In this document: in pieces, positions 41,658 to 53,696 of the stretch | Layout of the letters: each line of letters starts with the position of its first letter | Numbering within the stretch: position 1 is the stretch's first letter | Source of the DNA: Verrucomicrobiia bacterium | GTDB taxonomy: Bacteria > Verrucomicrobiota > Verrucomicrobiia > Limisphaerales > JADJPG01 | DNA length: 64,000 nt | Reading direction: 5' to 3' | NCBI GenBank assembly: GCA_035577805.1 | Contig: DATLUX010000292.1 | Coordinates: forward strand, 502-64,501 | The notes under the pieces: generated by a model | Seen by the model: only the letters and a program-made list of their open reading frames with translations | The model's database searches: none | What the model was told of the DNA's origin: nothing | Position numbers and translations under genes: made by a program

Positions 41658-42098
41658 TTGAGTGGGCGCCTGCGCCTATTGCTTCGCCGCTTGGGGCGTT
41701 GGGTTCGCCATGGCGTCAACCTCGAATCCGGCCCCGGTCCGCTGCTTTCCGAGCCCGCCCCCGCCAGCGCCGCGGCGGCGGCGACGCGCGACGCGGAGCA
41801 ATCGCGCCGACGCCTGGACGCTTGCAATCAGGCCCTGGCGGCCGCCATCAACGCTCGGGATCAACTCCGTGAAACGGCCGCGGCGGTCCTCCGGGCTCGT
41901 GACGAGTGTCAGGCGGAGTTGCGGCGTCTCACCGAAACCGGGCACGAGGAATCTGGGGCCGCAGCCGCGCTCCGGCTCCAGGAACTTCTCGCGGAGGAAC
42001 ACGATCTTCAGGAACAACTGCAGGCGGCGCAGACTCGAGTGGATGATCTGAACCGCTTGCGCGAACAGCTGCTGGGCCGCCTGCGGCCGGACATTTGA
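41658..42098 (+). CDS. Hypothetical coiled-coil protein (146 aa). It has weak resemblance to the PspA/IM30 N-terminal region.
   Basis: It is Arg/Glu/Leu/Ala/Gln-rich with heptad character, and the third codon positions are GC-rich, consistent with coding. The overlapping frame 41662..42051 is junk. Confidence 0.35.
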   Translation: MSGRLRLLLRRLGRWVRHGVNLESGPGPLLSEPAPASAAAAATRDAEQSRRRLDACNQALAAAINARDQLRETAAAVLRARDECQAELRRLTETGHEESGAAAALRLQELLAEEHDLQEQLQAAQTRVDDLNRLREQLLGRLRPDI

Positions 42099-42510: not shown

Positions 42511-43308
42511 ATGATTGAAGTCCTGACCGAGGCCATCGCTTTGCCCAACCTGCCGTTCACGGTTTTGTTGGGCGGCGTGGTTGCCTATTGGATCCTGGTC
42601 GGGATTGGGTTGTTGCAGTTCGATCACGGCGGGGGCGATCTGCATCACGATTTTTCCCATGACCTTTCGCATGATCTTTCGGCGGATGGCCATCTCGCCG
42701 TGGAACACGGCGCCGACGGGCATTTCGATGGGGATGCGCTGTCGGACGGACCTGGCGGCAGCGATGGCGCGCATGCGCATGGGGATGGGGATGGGGATGG
42801 GGATGGGGCCGAAGCCGGGGCCAGGGAGCATAGCCATGGCTTGTTCAGTCACGCGTTGCATTTTGTCAATGCGGGCCAGGTGCCGGCGATGATCGTGCTG
42901 AGCGTCTGGATGCTGGGCCTATGGTTCCTCTCGATGCTCGCGAATCATTATTTTGGGCACGGCTCGTTGGGTTGGGCGCTGGCGCTGGTGGTGCCCAATC
43001 TGTTGATTAGCGCGGTGGCGACCCGTTATCTGACCTGGCCGCTGGCCAAATTCTTCGGCGCACTGAACCGCGAATACGAGGAACATCAGAAATTAATCGG
43101 CCGCACTTGCGTGGTGGCGACCAGCGAAGTGAACGAGAACTTCGGCCAGGCGCGCATCGATCGGCGCGGCTCGCCGCTCTTGATTAATGTCCGGGCGTCG
43201 GACTCCACGCCGCTGCGCAAGGGCGAGACGGGTCTAGTGGTGCGTGAAGATAAAACCAAGAATGTGTATTACGTCGTCAAAGTTACCCCGGAAACGGAAA
43301 GGACCTGA
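42511..43308 (+). CDS. NfeD-like membrane protein (YqiJ-like): TM, a His/Asp-rich loop, TMs, and a C-terminal OB-fold
   Basis: The N-terminal TM is followed by DHGGGDLHHDFSHDLSHDLSADGH...GDGDGDGDGD. More TM helices follow. The C-terminus TCVVATSEVNENFGQARIDRRGSPLLINVRA...GETGLVV is the NfeD OB-fold. It is positioned immediately upstream of a flotillin gene, as in yqiJ-yqiK. Confidence 0.75.
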   Translation: MIEVLTEAIALPNLPFTVLLGGVVAYWILVGIGLLQFDHGGGDLHHDFSHDLSHDLSADGHLAVEHGADGHFDGDALSDGPGGSDGAHAHGDGDGDGDGAEAGAREHSHGLFSHALHFVNAGQVPAMIVLSVWMLGLWFLSMLANHYFGHGSLGWALALVVPNLLISAVATRYLTWPLAKFFGALNREYEEHQKLIGRTCVVATSEVNENFGQARIDRRGSPLLINVRASDSTPLRKGETGLVVREDKTKNVYYVVKVTPETERT

Positions 43309-43311
43309 TCT

Positions 43312-45384
43312 ATGTTCTTATTCATTGAAAGTCTCGTCTGGCTCGGCAGCGTCTTGCTGCTGCTGATCGTCGTGGGCGGCATCGTCAGCTTCCTTACTTG
43401 CTACCGCAAGGTGCAGCAAGGCAAGGCGCTCGTCCGCAATGGCATGGGCGGCACCAAAGTATCCTTCTGTGGCATCGCGGTGTTCCCCGTCGTCCATAAA
43501 TTCGAAAGCATCGATATCTCCGTCAAACGCGTGGAAATCGATCGCAACGGCAAGAACGGCCTGATCTGCATGGATAACCTGCGCGCCGATATCAAGGTGG
43601 CTTTCTTTGTCCGCGTCAATCAAACCCCCGAAGACGTTCTGCGCGTGGCCCAATCCATCGGCTGTGATCGCGCTTCCAGCCAGGCCGCCATGGTCGAATT
43701 GTTCGATGCCAAATTCTCCGAAGCCCTCAAAACCGTCGGGCGCCAATTCCATTTCGTCGATCTCTACAATTCCCGGGACAAACTCAAGGAAGGCATCCTC
43801 AAGGCGATCGGCACCGATCTCAACGGCTTCGTCCTGGAAGATGTCGCCATCGATTATCTCGAACAGACCCCGGTCAATTTGTTGAACCCCGACAACATCC
43901 TCGATTCCGAAGGCATCAAAAAGATCACCGAACTGACCGCCACTCAGAAGGTCCTCGCCAACAAGATCGACAACGACCGCGAAAAAACCATCACCAAACA
44001 GAACGTCGAGACTCGTGAAGCGGTTCTCGAAATGCAAAAGCAGCTGGCCGAAGCGGAGGAGAAACAAAAACGCGAAGTGGCCACGATTAAAGCCCGCGAA
44101 GAAGCCGAAGCCCGCAAGGTCCAGGAAGAACAACGCCTCAAAGCCGAACAAACTCACATCGCGGTCGAAGAAGAGCTTCAGGTCCTCAACCAAAACAAGG
44201 ACCGCCAGATCATCGTGGCGCAACGCAATAAGGAACGCACCGACGCCGTGGAAAAGGAACGCGTCGAGAAGGATCGCCTGATGGAAGTCACCGAACGCGA
44301 ACGCATCGTTTCCCTCGCCCGCATCGCCCGCGATCGGGAGATCGAAACCCAACAAAAGGGTATCCAGAACGTCATCCGCGAACGGCTCGAGGTGGAAAAA
44401 ACCGTCGTCTCCGAACAACAACGCATCAAGGACACCGAAGCGTTCGCCACCGCGGACCGCGAAAAGAAAGTCATCCTCACCGCCGCCGAACGCGAGGCCG
44501 AAGCCGCTTTGGTCAAAAACATTAAAGCGGCCGAGGCCGCCAAACGCGCCGCGGAACTCAAAGCCGAACAGGATCTGATCACGGCGGTCCGTCACGCCGA
44601 AGCCGACCGGCAAGCCGCCGAGAAACATGCCCAACAGAAACTCATCACGGCTGAAGCGGAGGAAGTTTCCGCGGTCAAGCTGGCCAGCGCCAAGAAGCAA
44701 CTGGCCGATGCCACCGCTGCCGAAGCCGCCGCCGCCGGTTTGGGCGAGGTCCGCGTCCTGGAAGCCAGAGCGGCGGCCACAGAGAAACAAGGCACGGCCG
44801 AGGCCAAAGTGGCGCAGTTGAAGTTCTCCGCCGAAGCCCAGGGCATCACGGACAAAGCCGAGGCGATGAAGCAATTCCATGAGGCCGGCCGCGAACACGA
44901 GGAGTTCAAACTTCAATTAAACAAGGAAAAGGACATTGAATTGGCGGCGATCAAAGCCCGGCAGGACATCGCCTCCAGCCAGGCGCTGGTTTTGTCCGAA
45001 GCCGTTCGCCATGCGCGCATCGAGATCATCGGCGGCGAGAGCGAGTTCTTCGATCGCATCACCGGCGCCGTCGTCGGCGGCAAAGCCGTCGATCGCTTGC
45101 TCGAAAACAGCGCCGTCCTGCGCGATGTCAAAAACACCTTCTTCAACTCCGATCCGGACCATTTCAAGCATCAGTTGAGGGATTTCATCGATCGCTTCGG
45201 CATGAGCAGTGAAGATCTAAAAAACCTCACCATTTCCGCCGTGCTGGCCCGCATGATGTCGGACGCTGATGACGGCACCAAGAGTGTCCTGGGCGCTTTG
45301 CTCGGCCAGGCCAAACGCATGGGCTTGGCCGATACTCTGGCTGCCAGTGTAACCGGCAAAGATGGCGCCAAGGTTAGAGGCTAG
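43312..45384 (+). CDS. Flotillin / SPFH (band 7) domain protein with a long C-terminal E/A/K-rich coiled coil (YqiK-like)
   Basis: There is an N-terminal TM. The SPFH core is VHKFESIDISVKRVEIDRNGKNGLICMDNLRADIKVAFFVRV, followed by about 350 aa of coiled coil. The antisense ORF 43318..44916 was rejected. Confidence 0.88.
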   Translation: MFLFIESLVWLGSVLLLLIVVGGIVSFLTCYRKVQQGKALVRNGMGGTKVSFCGIAVFPVVHKFESIDISVKRVEIDRNGKNGLICMDNLRADIKVAFFVRVNQTPEDVLRVAQSIGCDRASSQAAMVELFDAKFSEALKTVGRQFHFVDLYNSRDKLKEGILKAIGTDLNGFVLEDVAIDYLEQTPVNLLNPDNILDSEGIKKITELTATQKVLANKIDNDREKTITKQNVETREAVLEMQKQLAEAEEKQKREVATIKAREEAEARKVQEEQRLKAEQTHIAVEEELQVLNQNKDRQIIVAQRNKERTDAVEKERVEKDRLMEVTERERIVSLARIARDREIETQQKGIQNVIRERLEVEKTVVSEQQRIKDTEAFATADREKKVILTAAEREAEAALVKNIKAAEAAKRAAELKAEQDLITAVRHAEADRQAAEKHAQQKLITAEAEEVSAVKLASAKKQLADATAAEAAAAGLGEVRVLEARAAATEKQGTAEAKVAQLKFSAEAQGITDKAEAMKQFHEAGREHEEFKLQLNKEKDIELAAIKARQDIASSQALVLSEAVRHARIEIIGGESEFFDRITGAVVGGKAVDRLLENSAVLRDVKNTFFNSDPDHFKHQLRDFIDRFGMSSEDLKNLTISAVLARMMSDADDGTKSVLGALLGQAKRMGLADTLAASVTGKDGAKVRG

Positions 45385-45386
45385 GG

Positions 45387-45441
45387 GAAAAGCGGAAAGC
45401 GGAAAGCGGCGGGTCCCCCTCTCCCCTCAACGGGGAGAGGG
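45387..45441 (+). terminator. (GGAAAGC)x3 heptamer repeat followed by a perfect 10-bp GC-rich hairpin (CCCTCTCCCC-TCAAC-GGGGAGAGGG)
   Basis: This was read directly, 3 nt after the flotillin stop. No U-tract follows, so terminator function is uncertain. It could instead be an attenuator or processing structure. Confidence 0.4.
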
Positions 45442-45527
45442 CCGGGGTGGGCAAACCCAACGCGTCCGCTGTTCAACCGGAGTAGCAATTTGAACATTGA
45501 GAATGTTGCCAGCCTTAATGGATCGTT

Positions 45528-48500
45528 ATGAGCGCCGTTCTTGATGCTCCTGCGCCCGCGCCTGCTCCGGCACCTCCGCCGGCCCTCGATCAGGGCACTT
45601 ACGAAATTCTTCGCGCCCGCCTGGCCGCGCACAGCCGCGAGTTGCAGGCGCGTCTGGAGAAACTGAACCGCGCCCGGCAGGAAGTCTTTGGAGCCATTGA
45701 AACGGCGCTGGTGGCCACCGAACGGATCACCACCGGGAACAACTGCATCCCGCGGGACATGATTCCCGTGGGCCAAAACCGGTTTTTGTTTGGATATAAT
45801 GTGCACCTCGGCCTGCGCAGCGAAGTGCAGTTGGCGGACGTGTTCGCGGTTTACCAGCACGAGGCGCATCGCTTCGTTGAGCTGCCGTTGGATCTGATTG
45901 CCGATCGCCAGTTCGAAGTCGATTTCAAGAATCTCTACCGCTACTATAAGCATGCTGTTTTCTCCAAATTTTCTCTCAATGGCCCGCACCTGTTCATGGA
46001 GTTCCGGGTCGGCAAAGCCGTCACCGACATCAAAACCTTCAAATGGTTGTGCACCGAGCAGGGGCCGAAATATTTGGGGAACCGTTTCGATCACGAATAC
46101 ACGTATCCTCCATGCCACGAATTCGATTGGACCCGGACCCATCGGGAATTGCATCGACACGGGCTGCATCCGCACATCTCCATTCGCGATCGGGTCTTTG
46201 TGGAATGCATCGGAGGCGATCTTACGATCAAGGTCGAAGACAACACGGACACCGGCGAAGGCATCTACGCGGAGCCCGTCGAACAACGCGACCAGACCCT
46301 GGACGATGCGGAGATCTTTTACGCCACGGTCGGCAGCTTGATCCTGCTGAAAGTCCGGCCTTACCAGGAAAAGGACTTTCGTTACCTCGTTTTCAACGAG
46401 AAAATCAAACAGGTGCGCCGGATTGATGCGATTGCCGACGCCTGTGTGCTCCTGCCGGACGGGCAGGGGATTGTATTCCCGCGCGGTTATTATCTGCAGA
46501 ACGGGGAGTTCAAGCTGTTCGAACTGCCCCTGACCGACATGGTGTTCAACAAACGCGTGCACTCACCCGACGGCGAGAATGTGCTCTTTGTCTTTTATAA
46601 CCGCGACCGGGGTGATTACGTCCTGCTTTCCTACAACCTGATCTCGCGAGTCATCCAGACGCCCATTTTGTGCGGCGGTTTCTCGTTGTTCGACAATGGA
46701 GAAATGGCGGTGTTCCGCCACGAGCCGGAACCGCAGCGGCACCACGTGATTCAGGTCTGGCAGACTCCTTACGTTTCGAGCAGCTGGCAGGCTCCGGTGC
46801 GTTCCGATTCGTTCCTCTACAAGGTCGGCAACCCGGCGCTGGTGCGTTGTCTGGCCGAATGCCAGGAGGTGATCGCCCTGGCCGCCAAAGACGACACTTT
46901 TGCCGGTCTGTATCATGATCTGATTAAGCGTTCCGGCGACGTCCTTGACAGTTACTTCTGGCTGGATCGCCCGGATGCCTTCCAGTTGCACGCGCCGTTG
47001 GCGGAGATTCGCGCCACCGCCGTCGCCGCGTTGGCCGAATTCGACAAAGTGATCCATTTGCGCCGTACGGCGGCGACGCAGGTGCAACGGTTGGCTGGCA
47101 AGACGGCCGCCGCTTTGCGCGCGCTGGCCACCGAACGTTTTGATGCCATCGGCCGATTCACGGAGCGCCTGGCGGAGTTGCGTGTGCTCCGAGGGGAACT
47201 GATCGCACTTAAAGACCTGCGCTACGCCGATCTGTCGGTCGTGAACAAATGCGAGGCCGAAGTAGCGGCGGAAGCCGATCGGTTGGCCCAACGCACAGCG
47301 CAATTCCTCCTGCAAGCCCAGGCTCTGGCTCCCTTCAGTCAGCGTCTGGCCGAATTGCAGCAGCGCATTCCCCGCACCGGCAAGGTGACGGAAGCCCGGG
47401 CGCTGGAAGACGAGCTGCGCGGCGTCGGCAAAGAACTTGATCTACTGATCGAGACTGTCACCGCCCTCAAGATCCAGGACGCCACGGAAACCACCCGGAT
47501 CGTCGAGGCGGTCTCCGGACTCTACGCAGTCTTGAACCAGGCCCGGGCCGCCCTCAAGCAGCGGTTGCTCGAACTGCGCGGCGCGGAAGCCGTGGCGGAA
47601 TTCGCCTCGCAGAGCCGGCTGCTCGAGCAAGGTCTGGCCAGCCTGCTGGACCTCTGTGGCACGCCCGAACAGTGCGCCGAATCGCTCAACCGGCTGCTGG
47701 TTCAGGTGGAAGAATTGGAGGCGCGCTTTGCCGACTTCGACGAATTCGTGGTGCAACTCTCCGAGAAACGGGCCGCTTTCAGCGCGGCCTTTGAAGCGCG
47801 CAAACTGGAATTGATCGAAGCCCGCCATCGTAAAGCCGGCGGGCTCCTGGCTGCCGCCGAACGCATCCTGAACGCCATCCGGCATCGCGCTGAACATCTC
47901 GGTTCCGCCCAAGAAATCCATGGTTACTTTGCCGGCGACCCCATGGTCGACAAGGTCCGCGGCACCATCACGCAACTGATTGAACTGGGTGATTCGGTGA
48001 AAGCCGATGACATCCAGGGACGCCTCAAAGCGGTGCGCGAGGAAGCGCTGCGCCAGTTGAAGGATCGTCAGGATCTCTTCGCCGGCGGCAAAGAGATCAT
48101 CCAATTAGGCCGCCACCAGTTCCGCGTCAATACCCAGGAACTCGACCTCACCATCGTCCCGCGAGAAGGCCGGATGTGTCTGCATCTGGCCGGCACCAAC
48201 TTTTTCGAGCCGGTGACCGATGCCGATTTCCTGGCCACCCAGGATGTGTGGGATTTGGAAGTGTCATCCGAATCGCCGCAGCTCTATCGCAGCGAGTACC
48301 TGGCCGGACGAATGTTTGGCGCGCTGGAAGAAGCCGGGCGCCTGGAGGAAGCCGCCCACTGGACGGAAACCGAGCGCCTGGATCAACTGCGCGCCTTCAC
48401 GCACACGCGCTTCACGGAAGGATACGTGAAAGGCGTGCATGACGCGGACGCGGCCCTCATTCTGGGCGCGCTGTTGGAACTGCACCGGACCCTGGGCCTG

Positions 48501-50699
48501 TTACGCTACGCTGGCCAAGCCCGGGCTTGTGCCGGCGTGTTCTGGCACCTGCTGGGCGACGGCGAGACCAAAGCGCTGCTCACCGCCAGGCTCCGCGGCG
48601 GCGGCGCGTTGCAGCAATTGTTTCCCGTGGCCGCCTCCTCCATCGCCTGCCGCCAGGAATTGCGTGAAGCTCTGACCAAGTTTGTCCGCCTGTCCGGCTT
48701 GTTCCCGGAAGAATTGGTCGAGGACGCCGCCCGGTTTCTTTACGACCAAATTCGGCAGGGCAGTCCCTGGACTGCCAGCGCCGCGGCCGTGGAGTTGCGT
48801 GATGGGTTTAAGCGTCATCTCACGGCGCATCGGTTTACCGACCGCTTCCAATCCGCGTGCCACGCGGCGCAAAACGACGGTGCCGCGCTCTACGGCTTGC
48901 TGCGCGACTGGATGCGGGCTTACGCGCTCACCATCGCTCCCGTTCACTCGGCCACTGGCCCGGATTCGGACACGCTGCCGCGCGCGGACGAAGCGGCCTG
49001 GTTGCTTCTGCTGGATCCGCAATCGCCGCTGGAGATTGTGACGGCCCAAGCGCAGCGCGAACTCACCGGGTTGCGCGGCAGCCACCCGAAGATTCGTGAG
49101 GGCCGGCTTTGCCTGCAGTATGTCGATTTCATGCAACGTTTCCGGCTCCATCAAAGCCGTTGGGCCCCTGCCTTCGCCCGTTGTCGTGAGGTCAAGAAAC
49201 GTTTGATTGAAGACGGACGGGCCCGTCTGCGGCTGGACGAGTTCAAGCCACGCGTGCTCACCACCTTCGTGCGGAACCGGCTCATCGATTCCGTTTATCT
49301 GCCGTTGGTCGGCGACAATCTGGCCAAACAAATCGGCATCGCCGGCGAAACCAAACGGACGGATCGCATGGGCTTGCTCCTGCTCATCTCGCCGCCCGGC
49401 TACGGGAAGACCACCCTGATGGAATATCTGGCCAACCGGCTCGGGCTGGTCTTTGTGAAAATCAACGGGCCGGCGATCGGCTCCAAAGTGACTTCCCTCG
49501 ACCCAGCCGAAGCGTCCAACGCCGCGGCCCGAGAGGAGTTGACCAAACTCAACCTCGCCTTCGCCATGGGCGACAACGTGATGATCTGTCTGGATGACAT
49601 TCAGCATTTGCATGCAGAATTCCTACAGAAATTCATCCCCTTATGCGACAGCCAGCGCCGGATCGAAGGACTGCACCAAGGCCAGGCCCGCACCTACGAC
49701 CTGCGCGGACGCAAGGTCGTGATGGTGATGGCCGGCAATCCGTATACGGAAAGCGGCGACAAGTTTCAGTTGCCCGACATGCTGGCCAACCGCGCCGATA
49801 CCTACAACCTGGGCGACGTGCTGGGCGGCCACCTCGAGGCTTTTAAGCTGAGTTACCTCGAAAACGCCGCCACTTCCAATCCCACCCTCGCCCGGGTCGT
49901 CACGCGCAGTCCTCAGGATCTAATCGCCGTCGTGCGCTTGGCCGAGCGGGGTCCCGAGGGGGTTGATTTCGAAGGCACGTATTCGCCTGAGGAACTCGCC
50001 GAGTTCGTCGGCGTGATCCGCAAACTCATGCGCGTGCGCGACGTCGTCCTGCGCGTTAATGAGGAATACATCCGATCTGCTGCGCAGGCGGATGCGTATC
50101 GTTCCGAGCCCCGCTTTCAGCTCCAGGGTTCGTATCGCAACATGAACCGGCTGGCGGAAAAGATCTCGTCGGTCATGAACGATGCTGAGATCGAAGCTCT
50201 CCTCCATGATCATTATCGAAATGAAGCCCAAACCCTCGCTCAAGGGGCTGAGGCCAATCAGCTTAAGTTCAAAGAATTGTTGGGGACCTTGACCTCCACG
50301 GAAGCCGCTCGCTGGACGGAGATCAAAAAGATCTTTCGCAAAAACCTCCTCCTGCGCCCGGGGGAAGACCAGGACCCGGTCGGGCAAGTCGTGCAGAAGC
50401 TAGCCGCGTTCTATGACGGACTGGATTCCATCAAGGAAGTGCTGGCGGCGGGCCTGCGGCAGCTCGATCAAAAACGCCCGGAACCGCAACCCGGTTCCGT
50501 GGCCATTGTCATGCCCACGACGGCCGTTGCCTCCCCTGCGCCGACCCCCGCCCGCACCGAAACCCCGCCAGGTTCCAGCGGAATTGTCCGCGAGTTCAAG
50601 GTCACCCCTGAGACTTTGCAGAAAATATGGGAAGTCTTGCGGCAACAGCCCCTAGAGGCGGGCTCTGAACCAACCCCGCCACCCCCGGATTTGACATGA
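45528..50699 (+). CDS. Giant (1723 aa) uncharacterised protein with an AAA+ ATPase module (MoxR/AAA_5-like) at about residues 1280-1450
   Basis: Walker A is LLLLISPPGYGKTTLMEY. Walker B is VMICLDDIQH. The sensor-1-like motif is VMVMAGNPY, then RADTYNLGD. The N-terminus has an APAPAPAPAPPPA low-complexity run. There are about 1250 aa of uncharacterised, partly coiled-coil sequence before the ATPase, and about 270 aa after it. The antisense ORFs 45381..46562, 46563..47315, 47442..48104 and 48501..49613 were rejected. Confidence 0.85.
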   Translation: MSAVLDAPAPAPAPAPPPALDQGTYEILRARLAAHSRELQARLEKLNRARQEVFGAIETALVATERITTGNNCIPRDMIPVGQNRFLFGYNVHLGLRSEVQLADVFAVYQHEAHRFVELPLDLIADRQFEVDFKNLYRYYKHAVFSKFSLNGPHLFMEFRVGKAVTDIKTFKWLCTEQGPKYLGNRFDHEYTYPPCHEFDWTRTHRELHRHGLHPHISIRDRVFVECIGGDLTIKVEDNTDTGEGIYAEPVEQRDQTLDDAEIFYATVGSLILLKVRPYQEKDFRYLVFNEKIKQVRRIDAIADACVLLPDGQGIVFPRGYYLQNGEFKLFELPLTDMVFNKRVHSPDGENVLFVFYNRDRGDYVLLSYNLISRVIQTPILCGGFSLFDNGEMAVFRHEPEPQRHHVIQVWQTPYVSSSWQAPVRSDSFLYKVGNPALVRCLAECQEVIALAAKDDTFAGLYHDLIKRSGDVLDSYFWLDRPDAFQLHAPLAEIRATAVAALAEFDKVIHLRRTAATQVQRLAGKTAAALRALATERFDAIGRFTERLAELRVLRGELIALKDLRYADLSVVNKCEAEVAAEADRLAQRTAQFLLQAQALAPFSQRLAELQQRIPRTGKVTEARALEDELRGVGKELDLLIETVTALKIQDATETTRIVEAVSGLYAVLNQARAALKQRLLELRGAEAVAEFASQSRLLEQGLASLLDLCGTPEQCAESLNRLLVQVEELEARFADFDEFVVQLSEKRAAFSAAFEARKLELIEARHRKAGGLLAAAERILNAIRHRAEHLGSAQEIHGYFAGDPMVDKVRGTITQLIELGDSVKADDIQGRLKAVREEALRQLKDRQDLFAGGKEIIQLGRHQFRVNTQELDLTIVPREGRMCLHLAGTNFFEPVTDADFLATQDVWDLEVSSESPQLYRSEYLAGRMFGALEEAGRLEEAAHWTETERLDQLRAFTHTRFTEGYVKGVHDADAALILGALLELHRTLGLLRYAGQARACAGVFWHLLGDGETKALLTARLRGGGALQQLFPVAASSIACRQELREALTKFVRLSGLFPEELVEDAARFLYDQIRQGSPWTASAAAVELRDGFKRHLTAHRFTDRFQSACHAAQNDGAALYGLLRDWMRAYALTIAPVHSATGPDSDTLPRADEAAWLLLLDPQSPLEIVTAQAQRELTGLRGSHPKIREGRLCLQYVDFMQRFRLHQSRWAPAFARCREVKKRLIEDGRARLRLDEFKPRVLTTFVRNRLIDSVYLPLVGDNLAKQIGIAGETKRTDRMGLLLLISPPGYGKTTLMEYLANRLGLVFVKINGPAIGSKVTSLDPAEASNAAAREELTKLNLAFAMGDNVMICLDDIQHLHAEFLQKFIPLCDSQRRIEGLHQGQARTYDLRGRKVVMVMAGNPYTESGDKFQLPDMLANRADTYNLGDVLGGHLEAFKLSYLENAATSNPTLARVVTRSPQDLIAVVRLAERGPEGVDFEGTYSPEELAEFVGVIRKLMRVRDVVLRVNEEYIRSAAQADAYRSEPRFQLQGSYRNMNRLAEKISSVMNDAEIEALLHDHYRNEAQTLAQGAEANQLKFKELLGTLTSTEAARWTEIKKIFRKNLLLRPGEDQDPVGQVVQKLAAFYDGLDSIKEVLAAGLRQLDQKRPEPQPGSVAIVMPTTAVASPAPTPARTETPPGSSGIVREFKVTPETLQKIWEVLRQQPLEAGSEPTPPPPDLT

Positions 50700-50724: not shown

Positions 50725-51510
50725 TTGCGATTAGACCCGCGAAAGGCAAACACATTGGCTGCCCAATGCCAAGAGCCGATCGGCGCGTTCATGAACGGCA
50801 CACCGGAGTTTCTTACCACGCACTGGAGCATGGTGCTGACGGCGCGCAACCAAGGTTCCCCGCAAGCCGCGCAGGAAGCCCTCGCCAGACTCTGCCGCGT
50901 CTATTGGTATCCCATTTATGCGTTTGTCCGACGGCGCGGCTATGATCCACACGAAGCGCAGGACTTAACCCAGGATTTCTTTGTGCACGTCCTGGAAGAT
51001 GAAATCCTAAAGTCTGTGGATCCCGTAAAAGGCAAGTTCCGCTCATTTTTGCTGGTATCAGTCAGGAACTTCCTCGCCAAAGCCTGGAACCGGCAACAGG
51101 CGGCTAAGCGGGGAGGACAGTTCACTTTTGTGTCGTGGGATGCAGAGTCCGCTGAGAGTTGCTACCAGCAGGAGCCATCTCATGATTTGACTCCGGAAAA
51201 GATTTTCGAGCAGACGTGGGCGGCGGTGTTGCTCGACGAGGTGCGGAAGAAACTCAGCTTGGAATACGCAGCGGAAGGAAGGGGAGGGCTGTTTGAGGCC
51301 GTGGAAGGCTGCCTGGCGGGAGAGAAAGCCGGTCCTTATGCGAAAATGGGCGCACGGCTGGGGATGACGGAAGGAGCAATTAAAATGGCCGTTCTGCGCA
51401 TGCGCAAACGCTATCGCGAACTACTCCGAAGCGAAGTCGCGCATTCGGTCGGCCGTCTTGACGAGGTTGAGGAAGAGCTGCGCGATCTCCTGGCCTGTCT
51501 GAGCAGATAG
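50725..51510 (+). CDS. ECF-type RNA polymerase sigma factor (PVC-type)
   Basis: Region 2 is TTHWSMVLTARNQ...YWYPIYAFVRRRGYDPHEAQDLTQDFF. Region 4 is GMTEGAIKMAVLRMRKRYRELL. The start may be the internal MNGT at 50791. Confidence 0.85.
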   Translation: MRLDPRKANTLAAQCQEPIGAFMNGTPEFLTTHWSMVLTARNQGSPQAAQEALARLCRVYWYPIYAFVRRRGYDPHEAQDLTQDFFVHVLEDEILKSVDPVKGKFRSFLLVSVRNFLAKAWNRQQAAKRGGQFTFVSWDAESAESCYQQEPSHDLTPEKIFEQTWAAVLLDEVRKKLSLEYAAEGRGGLFEAVEGCLAGEKAGPYAKMGARLGMTEGAIKMAVLRMRKRYRELLRSEVAHSVGRLDEVEEELRDLLACLSR

Positions 51511-51548
51511 CTGCTGAAGGCAGATGAAGTCCAAGTTGACCGTTACCT

Positions 51549-53696
51549 TTGTCTCTTTTGCCGGTTGTATCCAGCAGAGCCAGTGGCAAGAACATGCCGC
51601 AAACTACCAAATGTAAGAATTGCGGCGCGGCCGTGCGGATGGATGCTCCCTTTGGGCATTGTTCGAAATGCCTGCTCGAACTGGGCTTTGGACCGTTCCC
51701 AGAAGAAGCAAGGTCGCCGGCAGCGGCTCCGCAGGACCAGGCTCGATCCTTCGGCGATTACGACATCATCGAGCGGATCGGCCGCGGCGGAATGGGAGTT
51801 GTTTTCAAGGCGCGGCAACGTCGTCCTAACCGGCTGGTGGCCTTGAAAATGGTTCTGGCTGGCGAATTGGCGTCGCCCACGCTCGTTCAACGGTTTCGAA
51901 TTGAGGCCGAGGCGGCCGCCAATTTGGACCATCCCAACATTGTCCCGATTTACGAGGTCGGTGAGTCGGCGCAGCGCCATTATTTCACCATGAAGCTGAT
52001 CGAAGGGATCAGCCTGGCCCAACTCATCTCAAAATTTGGCTTTCATGATGGAAAAGAACTCAGCACTGGACCGCCCGGCAGAAATGTTCAGAAAAGCATC
52101 GCCACCCTCATGGTGAAAGTGGCTCGTGCTGTCCATTACGCTCATCAGCGAGGGGTGCTTCATCGGGACATCAAGCCCAGCAATATTCTGGTGGACGTTC
52201 AGGGTGAACCCCACCTGACGGATTTTGGCGTGGCAAAAATGGTCGCGCACACGAGCGAGTTGACCCTCAGCGGGGCGGTCATTGGGACGCCAAGCTATAT
52301 GGCGCCCGAACAGGCCGCCGGAGACACCAAGCACCTGACCACGGCCGCCGACATTTACAGCCTGGGCGCGGTTCTTTACGAGTTGCTCACGGGGCGTCCG
52401 CCGTTTCGTGGGGAAACGCCGGTGGAGACCTTGCGAAAAGTCGTCGAACAGGAACCGGAGCGGCCACAAAGTCTGAACAAAATCGCCGACCCGGACCTGG
52501 CTACCATCTGTCTAAAATGCCTGGAGAAAGACCCGCGCCAACGGTATGGCTCCGCTGAGGCGCTGGCCGAAGACCTTGAACGCTGGTTACGCGATGAACC
52601 GATCTTGGCCCATCGCGCCAGCCGCGCCGTCCGCTTCAAGCGATGGGCGCGAAGAAATCCTCTGTTGACCGCGACTTCCGCAGGTCTGGTCATGCTCATG
52701 GGGGTCGCGCTGATTTTGATGGTGCTGATGTTCGCCGAACGGCGAAGAACGGAAGAGCTGTCCGCCGAATGGCGAAGAACGGAAGAGATGCGCCTGGATT
52801 GGAGAGAAAAGAAGGCCCTCGAAATGGACGACATGGCTGCCAATCCTGGCAAATATCCCTCGGTGAAAATTGACTCGCGAGAACGACATTTCATGACGGG
52901 CACCCTTGCGCCGAAGGTTATCCCGGGCCAGAAGCCCATTCGTCTTCTTTTCGGCGTTTACCCTCACCTCAAACCGACCGAGATGGTGGAGATGTTTGCC
53001 CCGACTTTGGACTATTTGGAGAGAAGCCTGGCCCAACGGCTGTCCAAGCCGGTGCTGATCGATTTCGTGGTCTTCAATTCCTACGCGGCCGGTGAGCTGG
53101 CTTTGGAGAAAGGCCAGGTTGATTTGATGCGGGTGGGGCCGGGTTCTTTCGTCCTCGCCCGCAGAAATAACCCAGGCATTCAATTGCTCGTGGCCCAAAG
53201 ACATAACGACTTTGGTGCGGTCATTTTTGTTTCCACCAACAGTGGAGTTCTGGCGATTGCTGAATTAAGGGGCCGGCCGATCGTCTTTGGAGACTCAAAC
53301 TCCACCGCTACCATCCTGGCAAAAGCGTTCCTGTTGGAGAGTGGACTTTCGAAAAAGGACTTCTCCAGCGTGACCCACCGCGCGGGTCACTCGTTGGTGG
53401 TTGACGCAGTCAAATCCAACCCCAACCATCCGGCGGGTGTGGCCAAGGAGACCGCCGTGGGAAAGGACATGCGAGTGCTTCACCGCTATCCAATCGTTGG
53501 CATGCCGTGGGTGGCCAGGAGTGACCTTGACCCTGAGATCGCAAAAGCGCTTAAGCAAATCCTGCTCACCCTCCAGGACGAGAGCATTCTGGACAAATTC
53601 AAAGACGGCGTCACCGGATTCAAAGAGGAATCTCTGGAAGCCTATCAGCCGATTGAGCCGGCCATTGAAAAGGCGATACTCTTTGGAGCGATGTAG
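51549..53696 (+). CDS. Ser/Thr protein kinase with an N-terminal zinc ribbon, one TM, and a periplasmic PhnD/SsuA-like solute-binding domain
   Basis: The zinc ribbon is CKNCGAAVRMDAPFGHCSKC. The kinase motifs are IGRGGMGVVFKA, HRDIKPSNIL, DFGVAK and APE. The TM is LLTATSAGLVMLMGVALILMVLMF. A duplicated ERRRTEELSAEWRRTEEM motif follows. The C-terminal region (LLFGVYPHLKP...VVFNSYAAGELALEKGQVDLMRVGP...) resembles a phosphonate/sulfonate-binding PBP fold. Confidence 0.85.
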   Translation: MSLLPVVSSRASGKNMPQTTKCKNCGAAVRMDAPFGHCSKCLLELGFGPFPEEARSPAAAPQDQARSFGDYDIIERIGRGGMGVVFKARQRRPNRLVALKMVLAGELASPTLVQRFRIEAEAAANLDHPNIVPIYEVGESAQRHYFTMKLIEGISLAQLISKFGFHDGKELSTGPPGRNVQKSIATLMVKVARAVHYAHQRGVLHRDIKPSNILVDVQGEPHLTDFGVAKMVAHTSELTLSGAVIGTPSYMAPEQAAGDTKHLTTAADIYSLGAVLYELLTGRPPFRGETPVETLRKVVEQEPERPQSLNKIADPDLATICLKCLEKDPRQRYGSAEALAEDLERWLRDEPILAHRASRAVRFKRWARRNPLLTATSAGLVMLMGVALILMVLMFAERRRTEELSAEWRRTEEMRLDWREKKALEMDDMAANPGKYPSVKIDSRERHFMTGTLAPKVIPGQKPIRLLFGVYPHLKPTEMVEMFAPTLDYLERSLAQRLSKPVLIDFVVFNSYAAGELALEKGQVDLMRVGPGSFVLARRNNPGIQLLVAQRHNDFGAVIFVSTNSGVLAIAELRGRPIVFGDSNSTATILAKAFLLESGLSKKDFSSVTHRAGHSLVVDAVKSNPNHPAGVAKETAVGKDMRVLHRYPIVGMPWVARSDLDPEIAKALKQILLTLQDESILDKFKDGVTGFKEESLEAYQPIEPAIEKAILFGAM

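Follow-up and report, generated by a model that had tools for sequence, protein, structure and literature searches.

Operons in which a small membrane protein gene of the NfeD2 type precedes an SPFH2 (flotillin) gene are known from Escherichia coli (yqiJ-yqiK) and Bacillus subtilis (yuaF-floT) (Hinderhofer et al. 2009, PMC2636767). That SPFH and NfeD proteins can form a cage at the cytoplasmic side of the membrane has a structural precedent in QmcA-YbbJ (PDB 8z5g); this cage represents another SPFH subfamily (stomatin-like SPFH1, together with a long NfeD1b) and lacks an ATPase partner. Furthermore, Ravi et al. (mSystems 2024, PMC11237479) reported from in silico analysis an operon encoding CesT/Tir, PspA, YqiJ/YuaF, band-7/flotillin, and a protein with beta-propeller, coiled-coil, and AAA+ regions, together with an "abbreviated" form; the authors proposed that the operon proteins mediate sub-membrane dynamics, suggested that abbreviated operons may use PspA encoded elsewhere, and likened the links between PspA and AAA+ proteins to Snf7-Vps4. 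Comparative genomics had thus already linked the gene trio described below to the PspA membrane-stress system as its partner. The passages of that paper dealing with the operon contain no experiment, no counts, and no link to DUF3686 or DUF7902, and mention neither a C-terminal extension of the flotillin nor an intergenic stem-loop. The literature that we found on the family of the large ATPase consisted of in silico description only, with no interaction, localization, or phenotype for any member.

The locus of this study lies in a stretch of 64,000 nucleotides from a Verrucomicrobia bacterium (the window), in which a YqiJ-like gene (ORF1), a flotillin gene (ORF2), and a gene for a giant AAA+ protein (ORF3) follow one another on the + strand (Table 1). 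An earlier note on this DNA had proposed three co-oriented genes with tiny gaps between them: all three ORFs were recovered as proposed, while only the ORF1-ORF2 gap (3 nt) was tiny, that between ORF2 and ORF3 being 143 nt. As in yqiJ-yqiK and yuaF-floT, the small NfeD2-type membrane gene is located upstream of the flotillin gene in one operon. On the other hand, E. coli has no third ATPase gene, and yqiK is followed by sib/ibs genes, whereas the window has the giant ATPase gene. The trio corresponded to the abbreviated operon of Ravi et al. (PMC11237479), with adjacent PspA and CesT genes missing, and no PspA gene was found in the 64-kb window. With moderate confidence, we read the trio of the window as the abbreviated form of a three-gene membrane cassette that is widespread (yqiJ-like, flotillin, and DUF3686 AAA+ genes).

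Table 1. Features of the cassette (feature, position in the window, strand, and basis).
ORF1, YqiJ/YuaF-like (NfeD2-type) 3-TM membrane protein, 265 aa	42511..43308	+	ORF call
ORF2, YqiK-like flotillin (SPFH2), 690 aa	43312..45384	+	ORF call
SPFH/Band_7 domain of flotillin, aa 34-180	43411..43851	+	Pfam Band_7 1.7e-9, 38.4 bits
Flotillin C-terminal ~210 aa, family-specific	44752..45381	+	YqiK alignment ends at aa 444
Perfect 10-bp GC-rich stem, 5-nt loop, no U tract	45417..45441	+	Sequence and fold
ORF3, giant cytoplasmic AAA+ protein, DUF3686 family, 1,723 aa	45528..50699	+	ORF call
DUF3686, aa 38-477, N-terminal helix and all-beta domain of beta-propeller fold	45639..46958	+	Pfam E = 3.6e-181, full model length
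Long helices (coiled-coil or spectrin-like bundles), ~420 aa, including DUF7902	46812..48077	+	
DUF7902, aa 598-679	47319..47564	+	Pfam E = 8e-24
AAA+ core, aa 1251-1430	49278..49817	+	AAA_5 3.5e-7, AAA 1.1e-6

The assignments of ORF1 as YqiJ/NfeD-like and of ORF2 as a YqiK-like flotillin were both borne out. ORF1 scored 22.6 bits with Pfam YqiJ_N, narrowly below the cutoff of 23 bits, and this model was matched by four of ten members of the ORF1 family (best E-value, 9.6e-7); identity to E. coli YqiJ by BLASTP was 25% (E = 4e-5). Hydropathy revealed three hydrophobic (TM) segments (aa 12-38, 122-145, and 151-174), with an acidic/His-rich loop containing D-x-D between the first two and a beta-rich C-terminal domain. 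The sole PDB match of the ORF1-family profile was the OB domain of YuaF (2k14), at a weak E-value of 0.83. Over aa 10-444, ORF2 shared 31% identity with E. coli YqiK (E = 7e-46); it consisted of an N-terminal membrane anchor (aa 1-34, its single hydrophobic segment), the SPFH domain, a long Ala/Glu/Lys-rich coiled coil, and a conserved C-terminal extension. The Band_7 match (cutoff, 23.6 bits) was obtained by scanning the N-terminal 222 aa alone; with the full-length protein no Band_7 match was obtained, for which the low-complexity coiled coil is probably responsible. The sole PDB sequence match of the flotillin-family profile was QmcA-YbbJ, in the coiled-coil region (E = 0.0023).

The flotillin of the window is 137 aa longer than E. 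coli YqiK and differs from it at the C-terminus, where the Pfam "Flot" match was non-significant (E = 0.6). Among 59 orthologues, ORF2 was conserved over nearly its whole length, with a mean column identity of 0.41-0.65 at aa 481-660. When the C-terminal segment alone was used as the query in a reciprocal test, a DUF3686 gene followed the flotillin gene in all five retrieved loci. The extension, which is lacking in E. coli YqiK, marks the subfamily of flotillins that occur together with the giant ATPase.

The giant family was large, with more than 4,330 homologues, the best 120 matches being 1,579-1,895 aa in length; it formed 958 clusters at 50% identity (E <= 1e-10) and occurred in at least 589 species genomes. 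The NCBI name for the protein is "DNA repair ATPase", for which no supporting evidence was found. The earlier note had written of a "1.7-kDa-scale" protein, a slip for one of 1,723 aa, and had recognized in it only an AAA+ module about 1280 residues in, with no described family. That module was confirmed (GYGKTT, hhhhDD, and AGNPY, at about aa 1284-1407); however, DUF3686 and DUF7902 were matched as well, so that a Pfam family does exist, and the operon had been described in the relevant passages of Ravi et al. The overall architecture comprises a beta-propeller and long helical arms, with only one AAA+ module, and no hydrophobic segment was detected by hydropathy. The AF2 model of DUF3686 (pLDDT ~90) showed ~27 strands within aa 60-412, and its Foldseek matches in the PDB were Sec12, Ycf48, the clathrin terminal domain, prolyl oligopeptidase, and WD40 propellers (E-values from 1e-6 to 1e-3); this region is, as modeled, a beta-propeller fold. 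In the AAA+ core, Walker A (GYGKT, 1291-1295), Walker B (D1356-D1357), sensor 1 (N1404), and the Arg finger (R1422) were invariant in 30 sequences, down to 31% identity, in keeping with a competent ATPase. The DD of Walker B, instead of DE, may indicate slow or switch-like hydrolysis. The AF2 model of the core (pLDDT 83 overall) had a beta-hairpin before sensor 1 (model residues 278-291), and its Foldseek matches (E ~1e-6) were MCM, RuvB, and the MoxR proteins NorQ and CbbQ.

RuvB and MCM among these structural neighbors, together with the Pfam description of DUF3686, the NCBI annotation, and weak RuvB_N and RuvB-equivalog matches over the P-loop region, would fit a DNA-repair ATPase whose adjacency to flotillin has no functional meaning. 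We regard this as extremely unlikely: the RuvB matches covered ~50 residues at Walker A and scored 22 bits against curated cutoffs of 282-299 bits, domain searches of the protein gave neither a nuclease nor a DNA-binding domain, no repair genes recurred nearby, the conserved partners are membrane proteins, and no published support for the label was found.

MoxR AAA+ chaperones (RavA-ViaA, NorQ-NorD, and CbbQ-CbbO) were also among the nearest structural neighbors of the core, and NorQ and CbbQ were the best target-normalized matches (TMt 0.49-0.53). The giant protein could, therefore, be a chaperone of the MoxR type that acts on membrane proteins held as clients in the flotillin microdomain, by maturing, inserting, or extracting them, namely, a protease-free analogue of HflK/C-FtsH. 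The AAA_5 match agrees with this, as does AGNPY...P..L.NR, which we take to parallel the motif pattern of MoxR; a VWA partner is a hallmark of MoxR systems, and none was found among the recurrent neighbor clusters of the loci. Beta-propellers often bind peptides or partner proteins, and S. aureus FloA-NfeD is cited in the literature as stabilizing unfolded proteins. Nevertheless, the neighborhood contained no conserved client gene, and we consider a chaperone of this kind quite unlikely. The giant protein also differs from MoxR chaperones in its 1,250-aa N-terminal extension and DD Walker B. HflK/C-FtsH, in which an AAA+ protease is enclosed by an SPFH cage, is cited as coupling such a scaffold functionally to an AAA+ machine in the cytoplasmic membrane, and in this it resembles the proposed cassette; HflK/C is cited as facing the periplasm, and the giant protein, unlike FtsH, has neither a protease domain nor a TM segment, its AAA+ module falling outside the FtsH/classical clade.

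Among 80 loci, each from a species-representative genome and together covering at least six phyla, 70 had a flotillin orthologue directly upstream of the giant gene on the same strand. Five of the ten flotillin-negative loci had less than 700 nt of upstream sequence, and among the informative loci only two (L016 and L046) were true orphans. Of the 60 loci that were testable for it, 55 had a YqiJ-like gene before the flotillin gene; at five loci, the flotillin accompanying the giant gene was more divergent and YqiJ was missing, indicating that YqiJ is dispensable for the pairing. The trio also occurred in Streptomyces and on plasmid pQBR103 of P. fluorescens. Chance adjacency, on which the grouping might have foundered, was thus refuted: the arrangement is far more frequent than chance would give, the three genes have been inherited as a group in different phyla, and, since homologues recur beside flotillin/NfeD genes, the co-oriented trio is a genuine conserved module.

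The earlier suggestion of a defense module gained no such support. An anti-phage or conflict system might be read from weak similarities to defense NTPases (PADLOC mad8 and IetA, E ~3e-3; nSTAND, E ~0.05), a STAND NTPase adjoining one orphan giant gene, and rtc RNA-repair genes near the cassette at two loci (L003 and L093). However, the PADLOC matches were non-significant and confined to the P-loop, no recurrent defense genes were present among the neighbors, and the flanks were metabolic or housekeeping genes unrelated between loci. The family was rare on plasmids (13 of 72,556 records, megaplasmids or chromids only), and identities of 43-53% across phyla gave no suggestion of rapid diversification. 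A defense role is very unlikely.

The proposal of a membrane-associated stress module, by contrast, was strengthened. PspA_IM30 (2e-41) and CesT_Tir_1 (1.6e-56) genes were located directly upstream in the same orientation at 17-18 Bacteroidota loci of the 80, and likewise at L092 and L093 of the reciprocal test; seven Flavobacteriia loci (L050, L055, L066, L073, L081, L092, and L093) had the same gene content and order as the operon presented by Ravi et al. (PMC11237479). The gene string on pQBR103 also included YjfI and PspA, and a divergently transcribed PspA gene adjoined the cassette at the Verrucomicrobiota locus L003; the window and most PVC loci had no adjacent PspA. PspA and CesT in the Bacteroidota operons point to membrane stress rather than defense or DNA repair.

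The same loci (18 of 80, L092, L093, and pQBR103) raise the alternative of a Vps4-like disassemblase of ESCRT-III-like PspA/IM30 polymers, with the role of flotillin and YqiJ limited to that of a membrane platform recruiting PspA. The long cassette indeed resembles ESCRT-III/PspA-Vipp1 and Vps4 in placing the gene of a membrane-remodeling polymer alongside an AAA+ ATPase in one operon; the SPFH protein YdjI is cited as recruiting PspA in B. subtilis, and Ravi et al. (PMC11237479), in the relevant passages, discussed distant PspA and the Snf7-Vps4 parallel. On the other hand, the giant AAA+ module belongs to a different clade from Vps4, its N-terminus comprises a beta-propeller and coiled coils, not MIT domains, and most cassette loci lack PspA. 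Aromatic residues are missing from the conserved loop past strand beta-2 (NGPAIG..VTSLDPAEA), and with them an aromatic pore loop, so that classical substrate threading of the Vps4 or ClpX type is not obviously supported. We consider PspA as the dedicated substrate unlikely.

The GC-rich hairpin proposed between the flotillin and giant genes was confirmed as a perfect stem beginning 33 nt past the flotillin stop codon, and occurred once in the window (0 expected). The best local hairpin of the spacer had a z of -4.3, and strong stem-loops after the flotillin gene were enriched in relatives over control spacers (Mann-Whitney p = 0.001; 17 cases, with control spacers from crude ORF calls), lending support to differential expression of the two genes. 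The recurrence of this stem-loop is a new observation. The element is a candidate attenuator or mRNA-stabilizing element between the scaffold and ATPase genes, and its recurrence is consistent with expression of the ATPase below that of the scaffold.

Remodeling or disassembly of the flotillin scaffold by the giant protein, as first suggested, is plausible, and ATP-driven remodeling of a flotillin/PspA scaffold appears to be the likeliest mechanism of the cassette. YqiJ and flotillin would together make up an SPFH scaffold or cage at the cytoplasmic side of the membrane, to which the giant protein, probably a hexamer, would be recruited by its propeller and helical arms, most likely through the C-terminal extension of flotillin. 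There, its ATPase activity may drive scaffold assembly, remodeling, or breakdown under membrane stress; PspA polymers and clients held on the scaffold are alternative targets. The stem-loop past the flotillin gene would reduce expression of the ATPase relative to a scaffold present in many copies. In this explanation, to which as a whole we give about an even chance, the longer cassette (CesT/Tir, PspA, YqiJ, flotillin, and AAA+) belongs to the PspA envelope-stress network.

The third gene of the cassette encodes a 190-kDa protein (the giant), identical to a Verrucomicrobiae MAG protein named 'DNA repair ATPase' by NCBI. In Pfam scans, two families other than the ATPase were assigned to this protein: DUF3686 (aa 38-477; E = 3.6e-181, 603 bits against a cutoff of 25) and DUF7902 (aa 598-679; 84 bits against a cutoff of 26). 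The earlier note had located the AAA+ module and read its motifs correctly, but was mistaken in taking it for the only recognisable module. In AlphaFold2 models computed from an alignment of 77 sequences (mean pLDDT of 85 for aa 1-1200 and 83 for aa 1101-1723), the chain begins with a helix and an all-beta domain (aa 60-412), continues with very long helices over approximately 420 residues, followed by a small beta domain and then a helical one, and leads through one AAA+ module, in which a beta-hairpin precedes sensor 1, to a C-terminal helical region and a disordered tail. In these models, the module has the alpha-beta-alpha core and lid fold of AAA+ proteins, and Foldseek matched the core to MCM, RuvB, NorQ, and CbbQ with a probability of 1.0. 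No hydrophobic segment was detected in the giant by hydropathy, and the protein is presumably cytoplasmic. A (Pro-Ala)n low-complexity run near the N-terminus (aa 7-18; window 45546-45581; APAPAPAPAPPP) was not conserved in relatives, and was modelled as disordered.

Features of the cassette region (positions in the window)
Feature	Position	Strand	Remarks
ORF1, YqiJ-like protein	42511-43308	+	265 aa; 3-nt gap to the flotillin gene
ORF2, YqiK-like flotillin (SPFH2, YqiK-FloT type)	43312-45384	+	690 aa
Stem-loop	45417-45441		Perfect 10-bp GC-rich stem, 5-nt loop, no U tract; unique in the window
ORF3, giant AAA+ protein	45528-50699	+	1,723 aa; 143-nt gap after the flotillin gene
Protein of 261 aa (sole domain Sigma70_r2), and 715-aa Ser/Thr kinase	50725-53696		Immediately follow the giant gene

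Among 30 sequences, down to 31% identity, G1291-Y-G-K1294-T1295, D1356-D1357, N1404, and R1422 were invariant; Walker B was the DD variant and not DE, and N1404 and R1422 corresponded to sensor 1 and the arginine finger, respectively. The invariance of Walker A, Walker B, N1404, and R1422 suggests that the giant is very likely catalytically active. The class of the AAA+ module was less distinct: AAA_5 scored 30.7 bits (cutoff of 22) and generic AAA nearly the same (29.6 bits), and the structural neighbours of the core were a mixture of MCM, RuvB, and MoxR proteins. A sequence comparison of the giant with the PDB matched only the P-loop region, to p97/VCP. A role as a MoxR-like client chaperone appears quite unlikely because no VWA partner gene recurred among the neighbours at 80 loci; the sole vWA gene seen near a cassette was of the Ro60 type, in the rtc locus of a Verrucomicrobiota relative (L003).

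The 'DNA repair' label had no reproducible basis. RuvB-type matches covered approximately 50 residues around the P-loop with scores far below curated cutoffs, domain scans of the giant found no DNA-binding or nuclease domain, and no repair genes recurred in the neighbourhood at the 80 loci; a true DNA-repair ATPase is, therefore, extremely improbable. A function of the trio as a defence system, which had been raised from the sequence alone, is very unlikely since PADLOC gave no significant defence-protein match, only matches confined to the P-loop (E of about 3e-3). PADLOC and NCBIfam scans both returned no informative family for the giant.

More than 4,330 homologues of the giant were scored. 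The top 120 matches ranged from 1,579 to 1,895 aa in length, with identities of 51% or more, and an architecture of PF12458, PF25472, and AAA was common to the best 120 homologues. The family formed 958 clusters at 50% identity (E <= 1e-10), extending down to 27% identity, and at least 589 species-representative genomes carried a copy. Verrucomicrobiota, Planctomycetota, Bacteroidota, Desulfobacterota, Clostridia, and Fibrobacterota were among the matches listed, and further carriers were found in Actinomycetota, Deinococcota, and Gammaproteobacteria. In the best 80 species loci, which served as the synteny sample, an orthologue of the flotillin (36-60% identical) was located upstream of the giant on the same strand in 70; at five of the ten remaining loci, the sequence available upstream was shorter than 700 nt, at three more it was only 1.5-1.9 kb, and the only clear orphans (L016 and L046) had unrelated neighbours. 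A YqiJ-like gene preceded the flotillin at 55 of the 60 testable loci (tblastn detected it at 49, and a profile at 6 others), and at the five loci without it, the giant was mostly paired with a more divergent flotillin. Flanking genes were completely different from locus to locus, and the trio was also found in Streptomyces and in plasmid pQBR103 of P. fluorescens. Adjacency of the flotillin and giant was, thus, overwhelmingly conserved. In the reciprocal direction, using the C-terminal 210 aa of the flotillin as a query, a DUF3686 gene came next in all five of the long-contig contexts sampled (5/5), in three of which the giant gene was broken by frameshifts (poor assemblies); this test rests on these five contexts, since the search gave mostly fragmentary gene calls.

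Several other features of these loci were observed. In three long-read or low-quality assemblies (L089-L091), the flotillin and giant genes were split by frameshifts into several called fragments, and, together with the fragmentary calls in the C-terminus search, this suggests that fragments of the family are common in databases as 'hypothetical proteins'. The two orphan giants (L016:9935-15532 and L046:7660-12534) had no flotillin within 7-10 kb; one adjoined a STAND NTPase and TPR pair, and the other Uma2 and TonB_C genes. The flotillin-giant spacer ranged from 7 to 2,411 nt, and genes inside long spacers were rejected as cassette components because they were heterogeneous, non-conserved insertions, which inspection of the sequences by eye identified as lipoproteins, a PIN-like toxin/antitoxin pair, an IS200-like transposase, and arrays of REP-like repeats. 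Mobile or selfish insertions of this kind (L071:426-1479, L024:5662-6186, and L041:9000-10000) indicate that the spacer tolerates insertions. An upstream 146-aa ORF in the window (41658-42098) was also rejected, having no homologue near any relative and no Pfam family, as were the downstream sigma-like and kinase genes, which recurred at only one locus (L048), upstream of the cassette and on the opposite strand. The kinase contained a phosphonate-binding-type periplasmic domain.

Both partners of the giant were membrane-anchored. The ORF1 protein contained three hydrophobic segments by hydropathy, and BLASTP aligned it with E. coli YqiJ (E = 4e-5). YqiJ_N (PF21001) scored 22.6 bits in the Pfam scan, just below the cutoff of 23, and matched 4 of 10 orthologues (best E = 9.6e-7). 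Its family profile gave a single weak match in the PDB, the OB domain of B. subtilis YuaF (2k14; E = 0.83), in the C-terminal region. ORF1 was located directly upstream of the SPFH2 flotillin in the same operon, an arrangement kept in 55 of 60 relatives. The loop between TM1 and TM2 (aa 40-110; window 42628-42840) consisted of D-x-D/H-x-D repeats rich in acidic residues and His; the repeat varied in length (DVDVDVD in Flavobacteriia), and its composition suggests possible cation binding.

The flotillin was anchored by one N-terminal hydrophobic segment (aa 1-34). A Pfam scan of the full-length protein gave no matches, and the SPFH domain was found only when the N-terminus was scanned alone (Band_7 on aa 1-222: 38.4 bits against a cutoff of 23.6, E = 1.7e-9). 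E. coli YqiK was 31% identical over aa 10-444 (443 columns, E = 7e-46). The anchor was followed by a long Ala/Glu/Lys-rich coiled coil; Ala and Glu each made up 17% of aa 200-480, and Lys 11%. The last ~240 residues did not align with YqiK, and the 'Flot' domain (PF15975) reached only 10.7 bits (cutoff of 27; E = 0.6) on the C-terminal fragment; Flot matched only one of seven aligned flotillins (6.4e-41), presumably E. coli YqiK. A sequence search of the PDB with the flotillin gave no matches. Mean column identity among 59 paired orthologues was 0.41-0.65 over aa 481-660. Judged by its sequence, the C-terminus is a family-specific extension, and its conservation among the paired flotillins makes it a candidate docking site for the ATPase.

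The spacer following the flotillin gene contained, directly after the stop codon and upstream of the stem-loop, a tandem repeat of GCGGAAA (2.6 copies; 45392-45409). In relatives, a long perfect stem-loop of unrelated sequence was very often present at this place. The best local hairpins of 17 cassette spacers (40-250 nt) had a median z of -3.9 and median energy of -20.8 kcal/mol, compared with -0.7 and -12.2 kcal/mol, respectively, for 90 same-strand control spacers from the same loci (Mann-Whitney p = 0.001); the case sample was small, the control genes were crude ORF calls, and the shuffles kept mononucleotide composition only. Only the local hairpin was significant, the fold of the whole 143-nt spacer in the window having a z of -1.3, and scans for sigma-70 promoter and intrinsic-terminator consensus sequences were at background level. 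The proposal in the earlier note that the flotillin and giant may be differentially expressed was, thus, supported by this enrichment, taken at face value given the small sample and crude controls. Such a difference would fit a cage made of many copies and an ATPase present in few.

Clustering of all neighbouring ORFs at the 80 loci revealed three further recurrent genes, every one in Bacteroidota. PspA/IM30 was present at 18 loci, at 17 of which it lay immediately upstream on the same strand; a CesT_Tir_1/YbjN-like gene and an XRE-type HTH regulator, the latter transcribed divergently, each occurred at 16 loci. The CesT/Tir-PspA pair was found in 18 of the 80 relatives. No PspA was detected anywhere in the 64-kb window, in which the genes upstream of the cassette were unrelated. 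In Ravi et al. (mSystems 2024; PMC11237479), a full operon with adjacent CesT/Tir and PspA genes is distinguished from an abbreviated form, consisting of YqiJ/YuaF, band-7/flotillin, and beta-propeller/coiled-coil/AAA+ genes in one orientation. The window locus lacked the former pair and contained the latter set; in these terms, it is an instance of the abbreviated form. That study also describes abbreviated operons without PspA as 'more widely distributed', and suggests that they may work with PspA encoded elsewhere. The giant acting as a PspA-specific disassemblase appears unlikely.

Some individual loci combined these elements differently. In the megaplasmid pQBR103 (L086, 1-13184), a 10-gene same-strand string (YjfI, PspA, rhomboid, DUF2491, DUF350, DUF1190, glutathionylspermidine synthase, a hypothetical protein, SPFH, and ATPase) ended with the trio, merging two PspA operon classes treated separately by Ravi et al. 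Directly upstream of the Verrucomicrobiota cassette of L003, a PspA_IM30 gene and a gene for a 558-aa AAA protein were divergently oriented (L003:3151-5750, - strand); they resemble the separate 'PspA + AAA+' pair mentioned in that study, here placed beside the flotillin cassette. At two unrelated loci, rtc genes adjoined the cassette: RtcR, a Ro60-type vWA protein, RtcB, and RtcA at L003:16444-23389, and RtcB at L093:13679-15070. They were not recurrent among the 80 species loci; in a 2026 paper, PaFlo8, an SPFH protein of P. aeruginosa, was embedded in an rtc locus.

The conserved cassette combines two membrane-anchored partners with a soluble, probably active AAA+ protein bearing propeller-tipped helical arms. 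Three precedents led us to propose scaffold remodelling by the ATPase: SPFH-NfeD cages such as QmcA-YbbJ; HflK/C-FtsH, an SPFH-AAA+ pairing; and PspA, a polymer like ESCRT-III, of the kind that AAA+ ATPases remodel in archaea and eukaryotes. In this mechanism, to which we give about an even chance, the giant would be recruited to the flotillin scaffold; under membrane stress, it would use ATP to assemble, remodel, or dismantle the scaffold itself, or else PspA and clients attached to it. A simple threading model is disfavoured by the conserved loop after beta-2, which contains no aromatic residue, and by the DD Walker B, which may confer switch-like hydrolysis. The Walker B of DnaA is likewise DD. 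A more specific version of scaffold remodelling is possible, but doubtful: the DUF3686 protein may be a dedicated flotillin-cage remodeller driven by ATP, a ring-shaped AAA+ hexamer whose six helical arms, tipped with propellers, would dock on the subfamily-specific flotillin C-terminus and open, close, or recycle the scaffold, the transcriptional stem-loop setting scaffold-to-motor stoichiometry. If this is true, the protein would be the first non-protease enzyme known to control an SPFH/flotillin assembly.

The linkage is strongly conserved, and the module is already catalogued in silico. The gene order of the Dokdonia donghaensis example in the supplement of Ravi et al. was the same as that of the Flavobacteriia loci in the present study, and, together with the operon they described, this indicates that the association has already been described computationally. 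A 2009 survey of SPFH proteins (PMC2636767) listed NfeD2-SPFH2 operons without the ATPase, and mutants of YqiK and several Pseudomonas SPFH proteins had little phenotype. Literature searches on 'DUF3686' and on flotillin with 'DNA repair ATPase' found no papers, and no experimental work on any member was found. The window locus itself is one more case of an operon catalogued by comparative genomics. New in the present study are the quantification of synteny in both directions, the link with DUF3686/DUF7902, the fold-level architecture of the giant, the C-terminal signature of the flotillin, the recurrent stem-loop after the flotillin gene, and the challenge to the 'DNA repair' label, through which a misleading annotation carried on thousands of proteins is corrected. 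In hundreds of species, this 190-kDa ATPase is tied genetically to a single flotillin subfamily, which makes it the most direct experimental handle on flotillin platforms: mutation of the motor, or its imaging together with the scaffold, could show whether these platforms are actively assembled and dismantled.
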